Below are positions 42,634 through 50,784 of a stretch of DNA of 64,000 nt, in pieces. The notes beneath the pieces are model-generated. The model was not told where the DNA came from. It worked only from the letters and a program-made list of their open reading frames with translations, and did not search any database. Position 1 is the first letter of the stretch, and every line of letters starts with the position of its first letter. Position numbers and translations under genes: made by a program. Location of the stretch: positions 647 to 64,646 of the forward strand of contig CAINHS010000122.1 of NCBI GenBank assembly GCA_903848955.1, read 5' to 3'. The DNA comes from an uncultured beta proteobacterium. GTDB lineage: Bacteria; Pseudomonadota; Gammaproteobacteria; Burkholderiales; Rhodocyclaceae.

Positions 42634-43965
42634 ATGCCTTCGCCACATCAACTGCCGGCTCGAAAACTCCCTGACGATGATCCGGCGCGGATGTTGTTGC
42701 ACGACGAAGTGCACGCGCGTCCCACGGCGCGGATCCGGCTGCCGGCGCTGGTGGTCTACATCGCGGTGCTGAACGAGGGTGTTTCACGGCAGCAGGAGTG
42801 CGAGCACCTGAGGTTGCTGCCCGGTCAGGAGGCCCTCGGCAGCGACCGCCTCGACGGCAATTTCCTGCGTCTGCGGTTTGAGCGATTCACGCTCAAGTGG
42901 GAACGGCACACCGAGTTCACCCGCTACTCGGTGGTGCAGTCGTTGCCGGCGGAAGCCTTGCTCGACGCTCATGATCCCGACCTGCATTCGGCATCGGCCC
43001 TGAGTGCCGAATGGCTGAGCGGGATTCCGGGCCGCACCATCTCGGCCGTTTTCCTGGCGATGGTTCACGGCGAGCTTGGCAGGCCGGAGGCGATAGTGAC
43101 GAAAGCGCAGTCGTGGTTCGGCGCGAATCCAATCGTTGCATCGTTGATGGGAGCCAACGGACATTCCTGCGCCTTTGCGGACTTCCAGGTCAGGCCGGAC
43201 GGGTTCGAGCGCATGCTCGTCGTCGCGCCGGCAGACACCTCCGAAACCAGGCCGGGACGCATTGCCCAGCGCTTGCTCGAGATTGAAACCTACCGGCTGC
43301 TGGCCCTGAAGGGCTTGTTTGTGGCAAAGGACATAGGGCCGATGCTGGCCCGCTCCGAGCATGCGCTGGCGGAGATCACTACCCTGCTTGAGGGAAAAAA
43401 GGATTCGGATCAGGAATTGCTGGAGCGATTGGTGTCGCTGGCGGCGGGAGTCGAGCGGGCAACGGCCCAGCACTCATTCCGGTTCTCTGCGACCAAGGCC
43501 TACGACGCTCTTGTCAGCCAGCGGATTGCCGAGCTGAGGGAAACAAGCATCCCCGGCAGTCAAAGCATCGGCGAATTCATGCAGCGCAGATTGTCGCCGG
43601 CCATGGCCACGGTGGCAGCGACGGCGCAACGCCTGACTTCGCTTTCCGAAAGAATCTCGAGAGCCAGCGCGCTGCTGCGGACCCGCGTCGATATCGCCAC
43701 CGAAGTGCAGAACCAACTGCTGCTCGAGAAATTGACGCGCGGCCAGGAAATGCAGTTGCGGCTGCAAACTACGGTTGAAGGCTTGTCCATCGCGGCGATC
43801 TCCTACTACGTCGTGAGTTTGCTGGTGTACGCGGTAAAGGCATTGAAGGGCGCGGGAGTTCCCGTCGATCCGGAAATTACCGCCGGCGCGCTGATTCCTC
43901 TGGTGCTGTGGGTGGTATGGCGAACCACGCAGCGGATTCACAAGAAGTTCCACGCCGGCCACTGA
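42634..43965 (+). CDS. DUF3422 family membrane-anchored protein
   Basis: LHDEVHARP, KWERHTEF, QRLLEIETYR, LRTRVDI, QLRLQTTVEGLSIAAISYY. Confidence 0.85.
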   Translation: MPSPHQLPARKLPDDDPARMLLHDEVHARPTARIRLPALVVYIAVLNEGVSRQQECEHLRLLPGQEALGSDRLDGNFLRLRFERFTLKWERHTEFTRYSVVQSLPAEALLDAHDPDLHSASALSAEWLSGIPGRTISAVFLAMVHGELGRPEAIVTKAQSWFGANPIVASLMGANGHSCAFADFQVRPDGFERMLVVAPADTSETRPGRIAQRLLEIETYRLLALKGLFVAKDIGPMLARSEHALAEITTLLEGKKDSDQELLERLVSLAAGVERATAQHSFRFSATKAYDALVSQRIAELRETSIPGSQSIGEFMQRRLSPAMATVAATAQRLTSLSERISRASALLRTRVDIATEVQNQLLLEKLTRGQEMQLRLQTTVEGLSIAAISYYVVSLLVYAVKALKGAGVPVDPEITAGALIPLVLWVVWRTTQRIHKKFHAGH

Positions 43966-44087: not shown

Positions 44088-44492
44088 ATGCCCATTCACT
44101 TTCTCGCCACGCTGCCGAACTTTCTCGCCTACCTTGGCGCCGCCATCGTCCTGCTGGTCGCCTTTGTCGCGATCTACCTCTATGTCACGCCCTACGACGA
44201 GATCGCGCTGATCCGCGCCAACAACAGCGCGGCGGCCATTTCGCTCTCAGGCGCGGTGCTGGGTTTCGCCCTGCCCATCGCCAACGTCATTGCCCACAGC
44301 GATACGCTGATTGATCTTGCGGTGTGGGGCGCGATTGCCGGCATCGTGCAACTGCTGGCCTGGGGCGTGGCGCGCCTGGCGCTGCCGCAACTGCAGCAAG
44401 ACATCGCCGCCGGACGCACGGCACCGGCTACCCTGATTGCCGCGCTGTCGCTTACCGTCGGCCTGCTCAATGCCGCCTGCATGACTTACTGA
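44088..44492 (+). CDS. DUF350 (YjfL-like) inner-membrane protein
   Basis: RBS AGGAG; four hydrophobic segments; VTPYDEIALIRANNSAAAI; ends LLNAACMTY. Confidence 0.85.
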   Translation: MPIHFLATLPNFLAYLGAAIVLLVAFVAIYLYVTPYDEIALIRANNSAAAISLSGAVLGFALPIANVIAHSDTLIDLAVWGAIAGIVQLLAWGVARLALPQLQQDIAAGRTAPATLIAALSLTVGLLNAACMTY

Positions 44493-44511
44493 ATCTACCA
44501 AGGAGACGCTC

Positions 44512-45531
44512 ATGGCACTCATGGATTTCATCAAGAAACAGTTCATCGACATCATCCAGTGGACCGAGCAGGACGACGACACCATGTCCTGGCGCTTCCC
44601 CATGGCCGAGTTCGAAATTCAGAACGGCGCCGCCCTGACGGTGCGCGAATCGCAGATGGCGGTGTTCGTCAATGAAGGCAAGGTGGCCGACGTCTTCGGC
44701 CCCGGCCAGTACAAGCTGACCACCCAGACGCTGCCGGTGCTGACCTACCTGAAGAACTGGGACAAGCTGTTCGAGTCGCCCTTCAAGTCCGACGTCTATT
44801 TCTTCAGCACGCGGCAGAAGATCGACCGCAAGTGGGGCACGCCGAACCCCGTCACCATCCGCGACAAGGATTTCGGCATGGTGCGGCTGCGCGCCTTCGG
44901 CATCTACGCCTTCCACCTCAGCGACCCCAAGGCCTTTCACACCACCCTCTCCGGCACCACGGAAAGCTACAGCACGGAGCAGCTCGAAGGCCAGTTGCGC
45001 AACACCATCGCCGGCCACATCGCCGACATCTTCGGCGAGTCCGGCGTGCCCTTCATCGACATGGCTTCGAACCAGGTCGAATTCGGCAATGCGCTGAAGG
45101 CCAAGATGGAGCCGATGTTCCAGGGCTACGGCCTGACGCTGGACAGCCTCAATGTGCAGAGCATCTCGCTGCCCGAGGAACTGCAGGCCATGCTCGACAA
45201 GCGCATCGGTGTGAACATGATGGGCGGCATGCAGGCCTACACCCAGTTCCAGACCGCGGAAGCGATCCCGCTGGCGGCGCAGAACGAAGGCGGTCTCGCC
45301 GGACTCGGCGCCGGTGTCGGCGTCGGCTTCGGCGTCGGCCAGCAGGTCGCGGCATCGATGGCGCAGTCGCTGAATCCGGCCGCCTCCAGCGCAGCGCCGG
45401 CCGCAGCCCCGGTATCGCCCGACGAAGTGGTGGCGACGATCGAAAAGCTGCATGGCCTGGTAGGCAAGGGCATGCTGTCGCAGGCTGAGTTCGATGCGAA
45501 GAAGGCCGAGTTGTTGAAGAAGCTCGGGTAA
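44512..45531 (+). CDS. SPFH (band 7)-domain protein, YdjI-like, with C-terminal SHOCT-like helix
   Basis: FIDIIQW, LTVRESQ, KWGTPNPVTIRDKDFG; C-terminal IEKLHGLVGKGMLSQAEFDAKKAELL. Confidence 0.85.
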   Translation: MALMDFIKKQFIDIIQWTEQDDDTMSWRFPMAEFEIQNGAALTVRESQMAVFVNEGKVADVFGPGQYKLTTQTLPVLTYLKNWDKLFESPFKSDVYFFSTRQKIDRKWGTPNPVTIRDKDFGMVRLRAFGIYAFHLSDPKAFHTTLSGTTESYSTEQLEGQLRNTIAGHIADIFGESGVPFIDMASNQVEFGNALKAKMEPMFQGYGLTLDSLNVQSISLPEELQAMLDKRIGVNMMGGMQAYTQFQTAEAIPLAAQNEGGLAGLGAGVGVGFGVGQQVAASMAQSLNPAASSAAPAAAPVSPDEVVATIEKLHGLVGKGMLSQAEFDAKKAELLKKLG

Positions 45532-45537
45532 AACCCG

Positions 45538-45660
45538 TTAGCCACAGAGCGTTTTGCGTGCCCTTGAATCCGCTGCGCGCGACGGCAACAGAGTTCACAG
45601 AGAAAAGCAAAGGCTGGCTCATGGTTTTTCCTCTGTGTCCTCTGTGATCTCTGTGGCTGA
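45538..45660. repeat. Palindromic intergenic element with internal CACAGAG repeats (copy 3, CAC variant)
   Basis: TTAGCCACAGAG...AACAGAG-TTCACAGAG / CTCTGTG-TC-CTCTGTG-AT-CTCTGTGGCTGA. Confidence 0.8.
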
Positions 45661-45675
45661 AGAGGTTTTTCTCTA

Positions 45676-47628
45676 ATGCCCTTTTCCGCCAACTGCCCTT
45701 CCTGCGGCGCGCCGGTTGTCTTCAAGTCCTCGGCGTCGTTTCACGGCGTCTGCGAATTCTGTCGCAGCACGCTGGTACGCCATGGCGGCAACCTGGAAAA
45801 CCTCGGTCGCATGGCCGACCTGATGGAGGACAGCTCGCCGCTCCGGCTCGGTAGCGAAGGCGACTATCGCGGCGTGCATTTCGCCGTGATCGGGCGCCTC
45901 CAGTTGCGTTACGCGGCCGGCATCTGGAACGAATGGCACCTGTTGTTCGATGACCGTCGTGGCGGCTGGCTTTCGGATGCCGGCGGCGAATACCTGATCA
46001 GCTTCCTCACGCCGCCCGGGGCGGAGTTGCCCGGGTTTGCCGCGCTGAAGCCGGACGACGGGCTCAAACTGGCCGGCAGGGACTTCGTCGTCAGCGATCT
46101 GGAAGAGGCCATGTGCATTTCGGGCGAAGGCGAACTGCCCTTCGCCTTCGGCGCCGGTTATCCGGCGCAGCTGGCCGATTTGCGTGGCACGGATCAAGCC
46201 GCGGCTGCCTTTGCCACCATCGATTACTCGGAAACACCGCCGCTGTTTTTCGTTGGCGAATCGCTGCCGTTTGCGGCCTTCAGCTTTACCGGGCTGCGCG
46301 ACGGAGCGGCGCCATCGAAGCCGGCAGGTACGCTCAAGGCGCTGCAATGCCCGGCCTGTGGCGGGGCGATCACGCTGCATGACAAGGCGGTGCAGAGCGT
46401 GGCATGCCCGTCCTGCCTCAGCGTGCTGGCCGCCGACAATGAGAGTCTGAGCATCCTGGCCGGGGCCGCCGCGGCAATGCGCGTCGAGCCGCTGCTCGAG
46501 CTGGGCAGCACGGGGCGCTTCGGCGGCAAGGAGTGGACCGTCATCGGTTTCCAGCAAAGGGCCGTCACCACCGGCGGCATCGACTATCCCTGGCAGGAAT
46601 ACCTGCTCCATCATGCGGACGAAGGATTCCGCTGGCTGGTCGAGGCGGACGGCCACTGGAACTGGGTCAGTCCGGTCGCCAATCCGCCGCGCTACACGGC
46701 CGGGCTGCCCTCGCTCAGCTACGCCGGCGAGCGCTACCTGCGCTATTCGGCGGGCGCCGCCGAGACGCGTTATGTCATCGGCGAGTTCACCTGGAAGGTG
46801 AGCGTGGGCGAAATCTGGCAGACCATCGACTTCATCGCCGCGCCGAAGATGTTGAGCCGCGAGACGAGCCGGAATGAAACCACCTGGTCGCTCGGCGAAT
46901 ATCTGCCGCCGGCCGAGGTCGCGGCCGCCTTCAAGCTGAAAACCGCGCTGCCAGCAGCTATCGGCATCGGCGCCAATCAGCCGAACCCGCGCCGTGAAAG
47001 CCATCGCCGCATCTGTAGCAACTTCTGGAAATTCTTTACCCTGGCCCTGGCGGCGCAGTTGCTCTGGGTCTTCATTCTGGGCGGACGCACGCTGCTCGAT
47101 CAGCGCCTGGTGTTCTCGCCGCAGAATGAAGAGCCGCTGACGACCCAGACCTTCCGGCTCGACAGCGCGGCGAGAAACATTGCGCTGCGCCACGACACCG
47201 ATCTCGACAACAACTGGCTGGGGCTGAACCTGACCCTGGTGGACAAGCACACCGGCCGTGCCTGGACGGCGCAAGGCGACATGGCCTACTGGCACGGCTC
47301 CGACGGCGGCGAAAGCTGGAGCGAAGGCGACCGCTCGCGCGAACTGGTGTTCCGCGACCTGCCGGCCGGCACCTATTACTTTGTCATCGATCCGGAAATA
47401 TCCGCGGAGAAACCGGTCGCCGTGGCAGACCGCATCAAGGTCATCCGCGACCAGGCCGCCTGGAGCAACTTCTTCTTCCTGGTGATTTTCCTTGCCGCCT
47501 TCCCGCTGTTCAGCCGCTACCGGATGACTGTCTTCGAGAACGGGCGCTGGCAGAACGCGGATTTCCTGTCCAGCGGCGCGGACCTGTCATCCGGCGGCAG
47601 TGACGACGACTCCGGGGGAGACGACTGA
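45676..47628 (+). CDS. DUF4178 domain protein with zinc ribbons and C-terminal membrane segments
   Basis: CPSCG..CEFC, GRLQLRY..G.WNEWHL, second ribbon CPACGG..CPSC, WQEYLL; TM segments; Ser/Gly/Asp-rich tail. Confidence 0.8.
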   Translation: MPFSANCPSCGAPVVFKSSASFHGVCEFCRSTLVRHGGNLENLGRMADLMEDSSPLRLGSEGDYRGVHFAVIGRLQLRYAAGIWNEWHLLFDDRRGGWLSDAGGEYLISFLTPPGAELPGFAALKPDDGLKLAGRDFVVSDLEEAMCISGEGELPFAFGAGYPAQLADLRGTDQAAAAFATIDYSETPPLFFVGESLPFAAFSFTGLRDGAAPSKPAGTLKALQCPACGGAITLHDKAVQSVACPSCLSVLAADNESLSILAGAAAAMRVEPLLELGSTGRFGGKEWTVIGFQQRAVTTGGIDYPWQEYLLHHADEGFRWLVEADGHWNWVSPVANPPRYTAGLPSLSYAGERYLRYSAGAAETRYVIGEFTWKVSVGEIWQTIDFIAAPKMLSRETSRNETTWSLGEYLPPAEVAAAFKLKTALPAAIGIGANQPNPRRESHRRICSNFWKFFTLALAAQLLWVFILGGRTLLDQRLVFSPQNEEPLTTQTFRLDSAARNIALRHDTDLDNNWLGLNLTLVDKHTGRAWTAQGDMAYWHGSDGGESWSEGDRSRELVFRDLPAGTYYFVIDPEISAEKPVAVADRIKVIRDQAAWSNFFFLVIFLAAFPLFSRYRMTVFENGRWQNADFLSSGADLSSGGSDDDSGGDD

Positions 47629-47771
47629 TGCCGCGCGCTGCGATGATTCTCAGCCTTGCCGCGTTTGTCTTGTTCAACTACGGACAATACATCGGCTGGA
47701 GCCTGTTTTCAGAAAGTGCCGATGCACAGCCCGTGCGCTCCGCCGGTGCCGCGCGGGTGTACCACAAGTGA
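47628..47771 (+). CDS. Small (47 aa) membrane protein not in the ORF track
   Basis: MPRAAMILSLAAFVLFNYGQYIGWSLFSESADAQPVRSAGAARVYHK; ATG overlaps the DUF4178 stop (TGATG) and fills the gap to speE. Confidence 0.7.
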   Translation: MPRAAMILSLAAFVLFNYGQYIGWSLFSESADAQPVRSAGAARVYHK

Positions 47772-47781
47772 TGCCGGCCTG

Positions 47782-49284
47782 ATGCAGCGCCCGCTGCTGG
47801 TCTCCGTTTTCATCGTCGCCTCCTGCGGGCTGGCTTACGAATTGATCGCGGGCGCGCTGGCGAGCTATCTGCTGGGCGATTCGGTGATGCAGTTTTCCAC
47901 CGTGATAGGCGTCTATCTGTTCGCCATGGGCATCGGTTCCTGGCTGTCGAAGCATGTCGAAGGCAACCTGCTGGTGCGCTTCATCCAGATCGAATTGCTG
48001 GTCGGCCTGCTCGGCGGGCTCTCGGCGGGGCTGCTGTTCCTGCTATTCACTTTGCATTCCGGTCCCTTCCGCTTCGCCCTCTACGGCCTGGTGCTGCTGA
48101 TCGGCATTCTGGTCGGGCTGGAAATTCCGCTGATCATGCGCATCCTCAAGCGCGAGGTGGCATTCAAGGATCTGGTGGCGCAGGTGCTGAGCTTCGACTA
48201 CGTCGGCGCGCTGGCGGTGTCGGTATTGTTTCCCCTGCTGCTGGCGCCGCATCTCGGGCTGGTCAGGAGCGCGCTGTTGTTCGGGCTGCTCAATGCGCTG
48301 GTCGCCGCCTGGGCGCTATGGCTGTTCCGGGCGCAGACCGGTGCATTGCCGGGGCTACGGGCGCAATGCGCGGCAGTGATCGGCCTGCTGGTGCTCGGTT
48401 TCGGTTTCGCCGGAGCCTTCGTCAGCATGGCCGAGGCAAATCTCTACAGCGAGGACATCGTCCATGCCGAGTCCAGCCCCTATCAGCGCATCGTGGTCAC
48501 GCGCTGGCGCGACGAGCTGCGGCTGTACCTGAACCACAATCTGCAGTTTTCCTCGCGCGACGAATACCGTTACCACGAGGCGCTGGTGCATCCCGGACTG
48601 GCGGCCCTGCCCGGCGCGCGCCGGGTGCTGGTGCTGGGCGGCGGCGACGGCATGGCGGTGCGCGAGATTCTCAAGTATCCGCAAGTCGACAGCATCACGC
48701 TGGTCGATCTCGATCCGCGCATGACGGAACTGTTCTCGCAGTCGCCGATGCTGAGCGCGCTGAACGATGCTGCGCTGAGTTCGCCGAAAGTCAAGGTCAT
48801 CAATGGCGATGCCCTGCAGTGGCTGGAAGAAAACCGGGAGATGTTCGATTTCGTCGTCGCCGATTTTCCCGATCCGTCGAATCACAGCCTCGGCAAACTT
48901 TACTCGACGGCGTTTTATCGCCTGCTGAAACATCATGTTGCCGAGACCGGCATGGTCGTGATTCAGGCCACCTCGCCGATGTATGCGCGGGAGAGCTTCT
49001 GGATCGTCGTCGCCACCCTCGAAGCCGCCGGCTGGCAGACCGCGCCCTATCACGCGCTGGTGCCGAGCTTCGGCGAATGGGGCTACATCCTTGCCGGCCG
49101 CCGCGAGTACCGGCCTCCCGCTGCGATACCGGTAGCGACGCGTTTCATCACTGTCGATTCCCTGCCTGCGCTGTTCCATTTCCCGCCCGACATGGCGCGG
49201 CTGGCGGCGGAGCCGAACCGCCTCAACAACCAGTCGCTGGTGCGCGTCTTCGAACGCGAGTGGGGTCGGCTGCAGACACACTGA
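47782..49284 (+). CDS. speE: Membrane-bound polyamine aminopropyltransferase (N-terminal multi-TM + spermidine synthase domain)
   Basis: About 7 TM segments (CGLAYELIAG, LEIPL, FDYVGAL), then DEYRYHEALVH, VLVLGGGDG, DFPDP. Confidence 0.88.
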   Translation: MQRPLLVSVFIVASCGLAYELIAGALASYLLGDSVMQFSTVIGVYLFAMGIGSWLSKHVEGNLLVRFIQIELLVGLLGGLSAGLLFLLFTLHSGPFRFALYGLVLLIGILVGLEIPLIMRILKREVAFKDLVAQVLSFDYVGALAVSVLFPLLLAPHLGLVRSALLFGLLNALVAAWALWLFRAQTGALPGLRAQCAAVIGLLVLGFGFAGAFVSMAEANLYSEDIVHAESSPYQRIVVTRWRDELRLYLNHNLQFSSRDEYRYHEALVHPGLAALPGARRVLVLGGGDGMAVREILKYPQVDSITLVDLDPRMTELFSQSPMLSALNDAALSSPKVKVINGDALQWLEENREMFDFVVADFPDPSNHSLGKLYSTAFYRLLKHHVAETGMVVIQATSPMYARESFWIVVATLEAAGWQTAPYHALVPSFGEWGYILAGRREYRPPAAIPVATRFITVDSLPALFHFPPDMARLAAEPNRLNNQSLVRVFEREWGRLQTH

Positions 49285-49352: not shown

Positions 49353-49688
49353 TCAGCTGCTCGGCGGCGTGCAATGTACCGCCAGCCAGACAGTCGGCTC
49401 GCCTGCGGCGGTCCAGTCCACGCGGTGACGGCGCAGCGGCGCAATGTGCAGCCAGTCACCCGCGCGCAGTCGCCGCGCTTCGGTTTCATCGGCGAAGCGC
49501 AGCAGCGCCTCGCCGCTCGCCAGCAGTACCCATTCGGCATCCTGCTGTTCATACCAGAAGCCCGGCGGGCTGGCCTGACCGCTGGAGACGATGCGCTCGA
49601 TGCGCACGCCGGGCCCGGCCAGCAGGGTTTCCATGCGCTCGGCTGCTTCCGCCGTGACGGGCAGATCGGCAAAGATATTTCCGGCCAT
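49353..49688 (-). CDS. Cupin domain protein
   Basis: MAGNIFADLP, RIERIVSSGQASPPGFWYEQ, EWVLL, HRVDWT. Confidence 0.85.
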   Translation of the reverse strand: MAGNIFADLPVTAEAAERMETLLAGPGVRIERIVSSGQASPPGFWYEQQDAEWVLLASGEALLRFADETEARRLRAGDWLHIAPLRRHRVDWTAAGEPTVWLAVHCTPPSS

Positions 49689-50053
49689 CAGGCGTCCTCC
49701 AGCAGTTCGGTGTCCTCGTGCGAGTAGGGCGGGCTGCAGCAGCACAGGATGCGCAACGGCCCGCTGCCGGTGGCTTCCACCCGGTGTGGCGTGCCGGGGG
49801 CGATCAGTATCGTGTCGCCGGCCACGACCGGGAAGCAGCTGTCGCCCAGGGTCATGAGGCCGCTGCCGGCGCTGACGTGATACAGCTCCTCGGTCAGGGC
49901 GTGGCGATGCAGGTGCGTCCGGGTTCCGGCTTCGACGGTCGCCTCGGCCAGGCTTTGCAAACGGTTGCCGTGCAGCGACGGATGCATCAGTTCGCGGATC
50001 GTCGAACCGTCACGGGTGACATAGGGCGCGGCATCTGCGTAACGCGATCTCAT
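49688..50053 (-). CDS. Cupin_2 domain protein
   Basis: HRHALTEELYHV...PGTPHRV, CCCSPPYSHEDT. Confidence 0.85.
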   Translation of the reverse strand: MRSRYADAAPYVTRDGSTIRELMHPSLHGNRLQSLAEATVEAGTRTHLHRHALTEELYHVSAGSGLMTLGDSCFPVVAGDTILIAPGTPHRVEATGSGPLRILCCCSPPYSHEDTELLEDA

Positions 50054-50784
50054 TGCCGCGCCGCCTTCTTCTGCAGCAGGCAGTGCAGCAGGGCCTGCTC
50101 GCCGGGCGTCAGCTCGCCGGCGTCGTCGCTGCCGGTGAAATGGCGGCGGAAGGCCTGGCGCGCCGCCGCCGCAACGACGACGTCATAGCCCAGCGCCTGC
50201 AGGCCGAGCATGGCATCGAAGGCGGCCGGCGCGGTCGCGGGCGGCGTCTCGCACCACAGGCCGAAGCCGTGTCCGGCGAGTCGTTGCCAGGGGAAGAGGC
50301 GGCCCGGGTCGACCTTGCGCGCCGGGGCGATGTCACCATGCGCCAGATAATTGCCCGATGGAATCCGGTAGCGCGTGCGCAGTCCGTCGAGCAAGGCCAG
50401 CAGGGCGACGATCTGCGCTTCGGCAAAGGCTTCGTCGCCGGTGTTGTCGAGTTCAATGCCGATCGACGCCGAGTTGAGGTCGGTGGTCCCGCCCCACCAC
50501 GATTCGCCGGCATGCCAGGCGCGGGCAGACTCATCGACGAGTTGCACGACGGCACCGTCACGCCCGATCAGATAGTGGGCGCTGACCTTGCGCTGCGGGT
50601 CGGTCAGGGTTGCCAGGGCTGTCGCCGCGTTGTCGTTGCTGGTCTGGTGCAGGATGATGAAATTGGGGCGGCGCTGGTCGAAGCTGGGGGAGGGCTGCCA
50701 CTGCACGCCGTGTCCCTGACCCGGCGGCAGCGGCGCACAGGCCGCAAGCGTTGCGAGCAGGAGGACAGCGAGTCCGCGCCGCAT
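50050..50784 (-). CDS. N-acetylmuramoyl-L-alanine amidase (Amidase_2, AmiD-like lipoprotein)
   Basis: Lipobox LAAC; IILHQT, VSAHYLI, AWHAG, SIGIE, HGDIAPARKVDPG. Confidence 0.9.
   Translation of the reverse strand: MRRGLAVLLLATLAACAPLPPGQGHGVQWQPSPSFDQRRPNFIILHQTSNDNAATALATLTDPQRKVSAHYLIGRDGAVVQLVDESARAWHAGESWWGGTTDLNSASIGIELDNTGDEAFAEAQIVALLALLDGLRTRYRIPSGNYLAHGDIAPARKVDPGRLFPWQRLAGHGFGLWCETPPATAPAAFDAMLGLQALGYDVVVAAAARQAFRRHFTGSDDAGELTPGEQALLHCLLQKKAARQ

Follow-up and report, generated by a model that had tools for sequence, protein, structure and literature searches.

The window analysed here, a stretch of 64,000 nucleotides from a Sulfuritalea genome, carries at positions 44088 to 49284 the five forward-strand genes that an earlier note on this DNA had placed there, with spacers of 19, 144, -1, and 10 bp in order along the cluster. 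The 144-bp spacer (45532..45675, assigned to neither strand) is occupied by a hairpin-forming, REP-like dispersed repeat with a strong predicted fold (-57.6 kcal/mol) and a core of approximately 30 nt, of which 12 further copies were located elsewhere in the genome. The same spacer measures only about 24 bp in sister species, and the longer version is a REP-like insertion peculiar to the present genome that lies outside the conserved module. Scans for sigma-70 promoters and terminators returned matches at chance level only, and no operon boundaries were drawn from them. The DUF3422 gene upstream of the locus lies outside the cluster.

The first gene (44088..44492, forward strand), preceded by a CAGGAG Shine-Dalgarno sequence, encodes a DUF350 (YjfL family) membrane protein of 134 aa. 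Its match to PF03994 (2.5e-36) spans positions 3-133 of the 133-position profile and, together with four hydrophobic segments, bears out its description as a full-length 4-TM protein. Gene-order comparison revealed that this form heads the cluster in the genus Sulfuritalea, whereas most relatives possess instead a half-size, 2-TM DUF350 of approximately 71 aa immediately upstream of speE, verified as such by profile (6.1e-14). The second gene (44512..45531, forward strand), present as the single Band_7_1 copy of the genome, encodes a cytosolic SPFH protein of 339 aa (PF13421, 6.7e-78), which we take to be of the YdjI/SamI type. The SHOCT-like tail previously ascribed to this protein is also present as a helix pair at residues 309-335, with a SHOCT match (5.1e-5) of 23.3 bits that falls under the Pfam threshold (27 bits). 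Residues 262-290, approximately, form a hydrophobic, Gly-rich stretch, and no segment of the protein reached the TM threshold.

The third gene (45676..47628, forward strand) encodes a fused double DUF4178 membrane protein of 650 aa, in which PF13785 was matched twice (4.5e-34) and the two DUF4178 domains are accompanied by two Cys4 zinc ribbons. The N-terminal half comprises a zinc ribbon with a jelly-roll (residues 1-200) followed by a second zinc ribbon (223-250) and jelly-roll (279-410), while the C-terminal half of the AF2 model (pLDDT 89.8) contains TM1 (440-468), a beta-sandwich (471-591) predicted to be periplasmic, and TM2 (597-626). Beyond TM2 lies an RWxxAD(F) motif, rendered as RWxESD(Y/H) in relatives, and then an acidic Gly/Ser tail; the zinc-ribbon/DUF4178 membrane protein with such a tail was thus correctly recognised from the outset, as confirmed by both the domain matches and the model. 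A fold search with this model returned generic jelly-roll matches only, with TM-scores below 0.2.

Overlapping the DUF4178 stop codon with its ATGA start, the fourth gene (47628..47771, forward strand) is preceded by a GGGGGAG Shine-Dalgarno sequence and encodes an exported or membrane-anchored micro-protein of 47 aa with a signal-peptide-like N-terminus, a GW motif, and the C-terminus ...YHK. All of the genus copies (30/30) are intact at 47 aa with conserved motifs and the HK ending, which, alongside the ATGA overlap, establishes the small membrane peptide of the earlier note as a real ORF. The C-terminal Lys was retained in 42 of 42 homologues from related loci. A profile search matched 201 representative clusters, and among the best 150 of these, 129 end in Lys, the others being fragments, apparent frameshifts, or unrelated sequences. 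None of the Pfam and NCBIfam models matched the family. The peptide is a member of a large uncatalogued family in which every full-length member seen has a C-terminal Lys, often with Tyr, Arg, or Gly ahead of it (...YHK or ...RYxGGK).

Where the peptide gene is missing, in clusters of the Comamonadaceae type, the DUF4178 protein itself carries a ...GGHK tail, and the fused tail and the separate gene were found to be mutually exclusive (12/0 against 1/44, p = 1.8e-11). In an alignment of the fused variant, the HK tail comes after a single TM segment, downstream of zinc-ribbon domains of the cytoplasmic type. In the separate peptide, a hydrophobic h-region comes after an n-region of positive charge, and the N-terminal flank is more positive than the C-terminal one in 36 of 42 sequences; the tail as a whole is net positive (+3.9), which could be taken as an argument for a cytoplasmic tail.

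The last gene (47782..49284, forward strand) encodes a 500-aa fusion of a 7TM domain to an aminopropyltransferase, a "polyamine aminopropyltransferase" of the PRK03612 type, scoring 681 bits against NCBIfam NF002956 (cut-off 472) and matching PF01564 over residues 262-438 (9.4e-36). The AF2 model (pLDDT 85.3) contains seven TM helices, in agreement with the approximately seven proposed earlier. Across 47 such fusions, the catalytic domain is invariant at Q235, DEYRYHE 260-266, GGGDG 286-290, D311, D343, D361/D364, and P365, and the TM domain at the charged residues E20, D33, E71, E114, R120, D139, and R162. Judged by these motifs, the active site is fully canonical, with the dcAdoMet-binding and catalytic elements (GGGDG, the ribose-binding acid, and DxxDP) complete. 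Against the models of canonical, soluble spermidine synthase SpeE (TIGR00417 / PRK00811), the protein scores under the equivalog cut-offs (126.9 vs 249.55 bits for TIGR00417 and 151.9 vs 260 for NF002010). The closest solved structures are the triamine/agmatine aminopropyltransferases of Pyrobaculum and Thermus and thermospermine synthase (PDB 1uir/3anx, 7xif, and 6bq2), whose fold the catalytic domain shares (Foldseek E of approximately 1e-15 to 1e-17, target TM-score 0.74-0.79). These soluble enzymes have the dcAdoMet- and amine-binding motifs in common with the window protein at 27-31% identity, and lack its N-terminal 7-TM domain, predicted periplasmic orientation, and dedicated neighbours. 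In solved spermidine synthases, the Asp residues of DxxDP act as the catalytic base and in binding the distal amine of the diamine, and with D361 and D364 retained, a polyamine is a better-fitting acceptor than a lysine with a free carboxylate.

With regard to orientation, loops 2-3, 4-5, and 6-7 contain 9.4 Lys and Arg residues per sequence as opposed to 3.2 in the remaining loops, and the stretch following TM7 is acidic. The positive-inside rule, itself a statistical rule and not a measurement, would therefore place the catalytic domain on the periplasmic side, an assignment we regard as probable. We know of no precedent for the export of dcAdoMet that a periplasmic enzyme of the SAM family would require. 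No second aminopropyltransferase with both the GGGDG and DxxDP motifs was found in the genome, and contig C132 encodes a SpdSyn-like fusion of the MFS type that is devoid of the catalytic motifs. The genome also encodes an OKR_DC_1 decarboxylase of the ornithine/lysine type, so that putrescine is probably available in the host.

Neither a SAM decarboxylase nor a flavin oxidoreductase is adjacent to the window locus, as was stated previously; both are nonetheless present elsewhere in the genome, as an adjacent pair of AdoMetDC and flavin amine oxidase genes on contig C52 (C52:565-2586), with 52% and 47% identity, respectively, to their cluster homologues. DNA matching this pair sits directly after the speE stop codon in sister Sulfuritalea loci, and where a sister species has the two genes on a single contig, the pair mostly lies either directly behind speE or past an insert of 0.65-6 kb. 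The window copy of the module is hence split, the oxidase and AdoMetDC belonging to the genome and not to the operon. Given this split and the repeat hairpin inside the cluster, co-regulation of all the parts is not assured. The AdoMetDC is the only one in the genome; it scores 80.4 bits against TIGR03330 (class 1b, cut-off 75.65) and carries an ESH motif whose internal Glu-Ser is the predicted self-processing site (...LAESHLAVHTWPE...). A PF01593 match of 35.8 bits assigns the oxidase to the amine-oxidase superfamily, and its N-terminus, MRRRDFIAGVSAGGVLAAC, displays a Tat motif, an h-region, and then a lipobox Cys; with a TIGR01409 score of 18.0 bits (cut-off 16.7), it is predicted to be a Tat-exported lipoprotein.

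The conserved-neighbourhood analysis suggested in the earlier note was carried out on the 56 related loci whose upstream DNA was long enough, and the genes proved to be co-conserved far above chance across several phyla. DUF4178 was present in 46 of the loci, DUF350 in 44, and SPFH in 41, and in all ten loci without a nearby DUF4178 the gene was located elsewhere in the genome. Loci from Betaproteobacteria, Acidobacteriota, Gemmatimonadota, and Verrucomicrobiota have the same gene set around the orthologue of the speE fusion, and across the order's 24 other families, the genes for 7TM::SpeE, DUF4178, and the oxidase were confined to one and the same pair of genomes. Within the genus, the cluster's junctions are plastic; the conservation of the neighbours is an arrangement far beyond chance. 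The full module consists of SPFH/SHOCT, AdoMetDC, one or two DUF4178 proteins, the Lys-terminated micro-protein, DUF350, the 7TM::aminopropyltransferase, and the Tat-exported flavin amine oxidase. Since domain content, neighbour conservation, phyletic profiles, and the operon type known from the literature all agree, the window locus is very probably a member of the known DUF350/DUF4178/7TM::SpeE envelope module.

Operons combining DUF350, DUF4178, and a 7TM::spermine/spermidine synthase were already catalogued by Ravi et al. (2024, mSystems 9:e00847-23, PMC11237479), who propose a link to membrane stress, show the module in related operons next to membrane-stress partners of the SPFH and PspA types, and refer to Li et al. 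2019 on "aminopropylation of other substrates". The gene cluster and the idea of non-putrescine aminopropylation put forward in the earlier note are accordingly not new, and its association of DUF350 with yjf/PspA-type polyamine clusters holds. The window locus resembles these operons in its YjfL/DUF350 and DUF4178, both on the same strand as the speE fusion and no more than 3.7 kb upstream of it, and in its transporter-like 7TM domain::spermine/spermidine synthase and Band-7 protein with SHOCT, with an AdoMetDC and an amine oxidase in the genome; the C-terminal hydrophobic segment and SHOCT that mark their PspA-free Band-7 + 2TM + SHOCT variant are both found in the window SPFH protein. It differs in lacking the CesT/Tir-PspA dyad, the Ctha_1186 lipoprotein, and the ATP-grasp ligase, and in having a 4-TM DUF350 in front, two fused DUF4178 domains, and a detached AdoMetDC and oxidase. 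The passages of the paper that were consulted make no mention of a Lys-terminated micro-protein, and the paper predicts an intracellular DUF4178, in contrast to the two TM helices and predicted periplasmic beta-sandwich of the window protein.

The window genes also resemble the clusters of Li et al. 2019 (AdoMetDC, a membrane-fused SpdSyn-like protein, and DUF350). In that study, an AdoMetDC clustered with DUF350 reportedly had a membrane-fused SpdSyn-like protein as its only partner, the bacteria concerned are said to lack spermidine, and the fusions assayed there reportedly gave no complementation of an E. coli speE mutant. The authors reportedly hypothesised that the fusion has an aminopropylation substrate different from putrescine. 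A further parallel is offered by PspA-SamG/H/I (YdjG/H/I) of B. subtilis, where an SPFH protein is recruited by membrane partners (PMC8581546, PMC13713150). As in the window, the gene for the cytosolic SPFH protein there has as its neighbour one for a membrane protein carrying two zinc ribbons. The B. subtilis genome, searched as a control, likewise contains a match to Pfam Band_7_1. The window differs from that system in having neither PspA nor a TPM-domain protein and in its polyamine-type enzyme partners, and the "SPFH-organised complex" of the earlier note is an analogy.

Taken together, these observations suggest a split envelope module whose mechanism, as a whole, we consider plausible though somewhat short of probable. 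AdoMetDC would generate decarboxylated SAM in the cytoplasm, an activity suggested by the cut-off passed and the ESH motif; this supply appears to be dedicated, because the genome holds one AdoMetDC and no other motif-complete aminopropyltransferase. The 7TM domain, with its invariant intramembrane acids, might then hand the dicationic donor to the presumably periplasm-facing aminopropyltransferase domain, where an envelope-side primary amine and not free putrescine would be aminopropylated. That the acceptor is something other than free putrescine is rather likely, and a bulkier one is favoured because the solved enzymes closest to the fusion accept agmatine or triamines and not only putrescine. 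Owing to its invariant C-terminal Lys, the peptide is the best candidate protein substrate, with the epsilon-amine of that residue as the candidate target and the Lys-terminated tail fused to DUF4178 as the presumed equivalent in other lineages; from the sequence pattern, the terminal Lys as aminopropyl acceptor is a tentative assignment. The Tat-exported lipoprotein oxidase may subsequently trim or oxidise the product, and the zinc-ribbon/DUF4178 protein may recruit SPFH and thereby scaffold or regulate the enzyme, by analogy with SamG/SamH/SamI.

In its most specific form, in which a periplasmic SpeE domain fed with dcSAM via the seven helices attaches at least one aminopropyl unit to the Lys of the peptide or DUF4178 tail and the oxidase trims the product, the proposal is speculative and rather unlikely to hold in every part. 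If true, it would yield a protein-tethered polyamine near the membrane or wall, trimmed or converted by the Tat-exported oxidase, and would represent, as far as we know, the first case of protein aminopropylation in bacteria as well as the first extracytoplasmic transferase of the SAM family to be fed via its own membrane domain. The use of a specific lysine epsilon-amine is familiar from Braun's lipoprotein Lpp, in which the periplasmic C-terminal Lys (...YRK) is joined to peptidoglycan by L,D-transpeptidases, and from the lysine polyamine modifications hypusine and silaffins, the lysines of the latter bearing oligo-aminopropyl chains; the likeness of these to the peptide is one of analogy only, with no homology.

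A doubtful yet serious alternative is a membrane-tethered but otherwise ordinary polyamine synthase (for spermidine, or for a longer polyamine such as thermospermine or norspermine) whose 7TM domain serves for product export or substrate uptake, so that the envelope surface is supplied, the oxidase back-converts or degrades the product, and the other proteins regulate. Pseudomonas aeruginosa, which carries surface spermidine, serves as a model. This account draws on the invariance of all the aminopropyltransferase motifs, both DxxDP Asp residues included, on the structural proximity to triamine/agmatine aminopropyltransferases and thermospermine synthase, on the uniqueness of the complete aminopropyltransferase and AdoMetDC in the genome, and on the encoded ornithine/lysine-type decarboxylase and PF01593 oxidase, and the conserved intramembrane acids would likewise be suited to transporting polyamines. 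It is opposed by the absence of spermidine and of E. coli speE complementation reportedly found by Li et al. 2019, and it leaves unexplained the strict co-occurrence of DUF4178 and the invariant Lys tail. The sub-cut-off TIGR00417 score (126.9, under 249.55) and the citation of Li et al. 2019 for non-polyamine substrates by Ravi et al. (PMC11237479) likewise argue against it.

Less probable still is the lipid option of the earlier note, in which the acceptor is the head-group amine of a membrane lipid such as phosphatidylethanolamine, giving a cationic aminopropyl-lipid bound or flipped by the 7TM domain. An enzyme embedded in the membrane by seven helices with invariant polar residues is consistent with this, as are the SPFH and PspA-type membrane-stress partners beside the module in related operons and the reach of a periplasm-facing domain to outer-leaflet head groups. 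MprF, which couples lysyl-phosphatidylglycerol synthesis to flipping, provides the model. However, neither the Lys-terminated peptide nor the fusion of its tail to DUF4178 would be explained, and phosphatidylethanolamine lacks the second positive charge that the acceptor would be expected to carry, given the conserved Asp for the distal amine. Similarly improbable is a terminal Lys acting as an Lpp-like covalent anchor, by which the peptide or DUF4178 tail ties an inner-membrane complex to the wall; the two enzymes, aminopropyltransferase and oxidase, would then have a different substrate, with peptidoglycan and a free amine as possibilities. The Lys-terminal tail, here predicted to be periplasmic, does compare with Lpp (...YHK or ...RYxGGK vs ...YRK), but no L,D-transpeptidase gene was conserved in the cluster by gene-order comparison, and the tight genetic link is with amine-modifying enzymes. 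Lastly, the notion that the adjacency is meaningless, with five unrelated neighbours or a spurious small ORF, could appeal to the chance-level promoter and terminator scans, the repeat hairpin inside the cluster, and the plastic junctions in the genus, but has a negligible probability and is already contradicted by the conservation data, namely the same neighbours in several phyla, concordant phyletic profiles, 30/30 intact genus ORFs, and a peptide profile matching 201 representative clusters.

The five genes that the earlier note had described at 44088-49284, all on the plus strand, were confirmed. A DUF350 gene (44088-44492; PF03994, 2.5e-36), encoding four hydrophobic segments, is followed by a gene for a Band_7_1 SPFH protein (44512-45531; PF13421, 6.7e-78), with a sub-threshold SHOCT match of 23.3 bits, and by one for a 650-aa DUF4178 protein (45676-47628) in which Cys4 zinc ribbons and DUF4178 domains each occur twice. 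The ATG of a peptide ORF of 47 codons (47628-47771) overlaps the DUF4178 stop, and the peptide stop lies 10 nt ahead of the start of the gene for 7TM::SpeE (47782-49284), a 500-aa protein whose N-terminal half is hydrophobic and precedes an aminopropyltransferase domain (NF002956/PRK03612, 681 bits; cut-off 472). A plausible Shine-Dalgarno sequence precedes all four of the DUF350, SPFH, DUF4178 and peptide genes. The association of such genes was reportedly published in 2019. Ravi et al. 2024 (PMC11237479) report operons that combine a 7TM::spermine/spermidine-synthase with DUF350 and DUF4178, together with a PspA-free variant containing Band-7 + 2TM + SHOCT, AdoMetDC and a polyamine oxidase. 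Since such operons are described there with reference to work of 2019, the cluster is of an already known kind, and the hypothesis of the earlier note, that an SPFH-organised complex aminopropylates an envelope substrate rather than free putrescine, is the published one. The window copy is a rearranged, split member of this known module and offers nothing new to catalogue as such.

A scan using one genome per species returned at least 595 related stretches, and the module's range extends to hundreds of bacterial species; mycobacteria have a related cluster. The closest loci among the matches listed came from Sulfuritalea and Rhodocyclales MAGs, with SpeE identities of 86-90%. For the best 80 of the at least 595 loci, which originate from Betaproteobacteria, Acidobacteriota, Gemmatimonadota and Verrucomicrobiota, ORFs were called in the surroundings and clustered, and HMMs were built. 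The canonical order is SPFH, AdoMetDC, Zn-ribbon/DUF4178 (~210 aa), DUF4178 (~450 aa), a small protein (~61 aa), a half-size 2-TM DUF350 (~71 aa, its assignment confirmed with Pfam), 7TM::SpeE and an FAD amine oxidoreductase (~540 aa). Within the subset of these 80 loci that have at least 5.5 kb upstream (n = 56), DUF4178 was present in 46, DUF350 in 44, SPFH in 41, and the small protein and AdoMetDC in 36 each, while the oxidase was found at 59 of the 63 with at least 2.5 kb downstream. All ten genomes with speE lacking a neighbouring DUF4178 hold one DUF4178 gene at another place, and among the 24 other families of the order, two genomes alone carry the full-length SpeE fusion, and the same two alone carry the oxidase and DUF4178. 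On account of the neighbour counts, the unlinked DUF4178 genes and this matching presence, the module genes are co-conserved and keep company at the genome level even when physically split; of the interpretation put forward in the earlier note, the co-conserved gene set is the part borne out, and one of the grounds on which that note would have given up its idea, an absence of co-conservation, does not apply. The oxidase match in each of the order's two non-Sulfuritalea carriers (G041 and G052) has one in-frame TAA, which may stem from an alignment crossing a gene start or from a genuine disruption.

The window genome contains exactly one AdoMetDC gene, located on another of its contigs (C52:565-975), where a gene homologous to that of the cluster's oxidase (C52:991-2586) lies immediately upstream of it, both on the minus strand. 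This pair lies 3 bp downstream of the gene for an 890-aa P-type cation ATPase (C52:2590-5262, minus strand), just upstream of which a MerR_2 regulator gene is situated (C52:5275-5595). A SPOR-domain gene follows AdoMetDC on C52:1-6723 (locus L115), as in sister species. The AdoMetDC scored above the equivalog cut-off and contains the ESH processing motif, and the oxidase N-terminus, MRRRDFIAGVSAGGVLAAC, comprises a twin-arginine signal (TIGR01409 above cut-off) and then a lipobox. Four sister Sulfuritalea loci have this same oxidase-AdoMetDC-SPOR stretch after the stop of speE. Among the Sulfuritalea genomes G001-G036, the speE/oxidase junction is intact in about a dozen and carries inserts of 0.65-6.1 kb in approximately ten; speE and the oxidase gene are on different contigs in G000, G007, G003 and G025, including the window genome and its closest relative (G007), and DUF4178 is ~6.4 kb from speE in the single-contig genome G002. 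The cluster junctions are insertion hot spots within Sulfuritalea. A misassembly may have caused the split, but the likewise divided locus of G007 and the junction inserts of other species favour a true rearrangement in the window genome.

Alignment of 47 fusions of 57-90% identity revealed an invariant Q235, D260-E-Y-R-Y-H-E266 and GGGDG (286-290), with D311, D343, D361 and D364-P365 as further catalytic invariants. The nearest solved structures to SpeE are the triamine/agmatine aminopropyltransferases of Pyrobaculum and Thermus and the plant thermospermine synthase, all of which take amines larger than putrescine. Two other Spermine_synth matches in the genome were ruled out as canonical SpeE, both being devoid of GGGDG and DxxDP; given these missing catalytic motifs, the fusion is the sole complete aminopropyltransferase of the genome and its sole obvious user of decarboxylated SAM. 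In genomes of this sort, the module supplies both the single AdoMetDC and the one complete aminopropyltransferase. An MFS-type spermidine-synthase-like membrane fusion, truncated by the contig end, is encoded at C132:1282-2226 (L003), and a 248-aa soluble PRK04457-like spermidine-synthase-like protein on contig C111 (L002, 1387-2133). The AF2 model of 7TM::SpeE (pLDDT 85.3) has seven TM helices, in or beside which lie the charged invariants E20, D33, E71, E114, R120, D139 and R162. When the full model was searched against the PDB, the catalytic domain alone was matched, and the fold search is therefore uninformative on the TM domain. Across the family, loops 2-3, 4-5 and 6-7 hold 9.4 Lys plus Arg per sequence and the other loops 3.2, and the segment following TM7 is acidic; read by the positive-inside rule, the loop charges place the N-terminus probably in the cytoplasm and the catalytic domain probably in the periplasm.

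The small ORF is intact in 30 of 30 copies from the genus, each of 47 aa with HK at the end, and the 47-aa protein is real; it is homologous to the ~61-aa protein of canonical clusters. G23, R37, R43 and K47 are invariant and Y45 nearly so. A terminal Lys is present in all 42 homologues at related loci (GGK in 32, HK in 10), and 201 clusters were retrieved with a profile from 1.84 billion representative proteins, 129 of the best 150 having a terminal Lys; the other 21 were contig-end fragments, unrelated sequences, or ones that diverge past the RDNPG core in the manner of a frameshift. The family is without a model in Pfam or NCBIfam. Its N-terminus, with a positive n-region ahead of a hydrophobic h-region, resembles a Sec signal or signal anchor. 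In 36 of 42 copies the charges of the near flanks speak for an N-in/C-out orientation, but the tail as a whole carries a net positive charge, and charge is only moderately informative on orientation.

In the AF2 model of the DUF4178 protein (pLDDT 89.8), two modules, each of zinc ribbon + jelly-roll, come first, then a beta-sandwich of ~120 residues flanked on either side by a TM helix, and last an acidic tail; as modelled, the beta-sandwich would be periplasmic if the zinc ribbons are cytoplasmic. Its fold search gave no functional hint, the matches being generic ones to jelly-roll, TNF-like, CBM or Cry-domain folds, all with TM-scores below 0.2. Proteins with the acidic tail are accompanied by a separate peptide in 44 of 45 cases. 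At 12 Comamonadaceae-type loci without a peptide gene, DUF4178 has instead a single TM helix, after which a Cys-rich segment leads into a Gly/Ser/Tyr tail with ...GG(G/S)HK at its C-terminal end (Fisher's exact test for fused Lys tail versus separate peptide, p = 1.8e-11). Because fused tail and separate peptide gene replace each other, the Lys-terminated tail, whether free or fused, is obligate to the system and functionally tied to DUF4178; if the zinc ribbons are cytoplasmic, the fused tail must be extracytoplasmic. Between TM helix and tail, the fused variant (L087, L095, L111, L114 and similar loci) has three conserved Cys, RC..S.CDP..ENCSSS, which could form a periplasmic disulfide or metal site. 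The fused Gly/Ser tail weakly matched the YxzE 'bacteriocin' model (18.6 bits; cut-off 40), which was taken as a compositional artefact.

Three separate lines, from the peptide, the oxidase and the catalytic domain, thus all point to the periplasm as judged from sequence. What is established is the gene set with its conservation, together with intact motifs and the export signals. Beyond that, a pathway may be proposed in which decarboxylated SAM from the cytoplasm would be passed by the 7TM domain to the periplasm-facing transferase. The acceptor of the aminopropyl group would be an amine on the envelope side, with the peptide's terminal Lys as the most plausible candidate, and the exported oxidase would then process the product. 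The zinc-ribbon membrane protein may recruit the cytosolic SPFH protein, by analogy with B. subtilis, in which SamI (YdjI) is recruited by SamG/SamH (PMC8581546, PMC13713150). Alternatively, SpeE could be an ordinary polyamine synthase that is tethered to the membrane and works in conjunction with transport, as its canonical active site retains the Asp binding the distal amine of a diamine and an ornithine/lysine-type decarboxylase is encoded in the genome. The obligatory Lys-tail and DUF4178 partners argue against this, however, and such fusions have reportedly been described (Li et al. 2019) as making no spermidine. Taken together, the split co-occurrence, the obligate Lys peptide and the periplasmic inferences turn the target of the membrane SpeE into a simple mass-spectrometry question. 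Should that target be a protein lysine, as in the proposed pathway, this would add both a new post-translational modification and a novel type of envelope chemistry, tied to SPFH/PspA-type stress systems. The available portions of Ravi et al. 2024 (PMC11237479), the sole mention of DUF4178 in the literature searched, contain no Lys-terminated peptide, DUF4178 fusion of it or consistent periplasmic inference.

As for the surroundings of the locus, the upstream DUF3422 gene (42634-43965) was ruled out as a sixth module gene, being present at 0 of 80 related loci (the best 80 of at least 595). Scans for sigma-70 promoters and intrinsic terminators gave counts at the level of shuffled sequence, and hence no operon boundaries are obtainable from them. 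Immediately 3' of speE, the opposite strand (49353-50784, minus) carries a cupin gene (49353-49745) resembling the cupin half of Nif11/cupin proteins, a second cupin gene (49688-50053) overlapping it, and a gene for an AmpD-like N-acetylmuramoyl-L-alanine amidase (50050-50784), with no homology to the genes following speE in relatives. The SPFH and DUF4178 genes are 144 bp apart (45532-45675), and this gap, with a predicted hairpin of -57.6 kcal/mol, is no regulatory spacer of the module: it holds a dispersed REP-like repeat and measures ~24 bp in sister species. The core of the repeat, of ~30 nt (TTCCTCTGTGTCCTCTGTGATCTCTGTGG), has 12 further copies in the window genome, and the repeat may belong to the same family as the intergenic palindromic inserts reported for the window between cheR and cheB, gltJ and gltK, and ntrB and ntrC.
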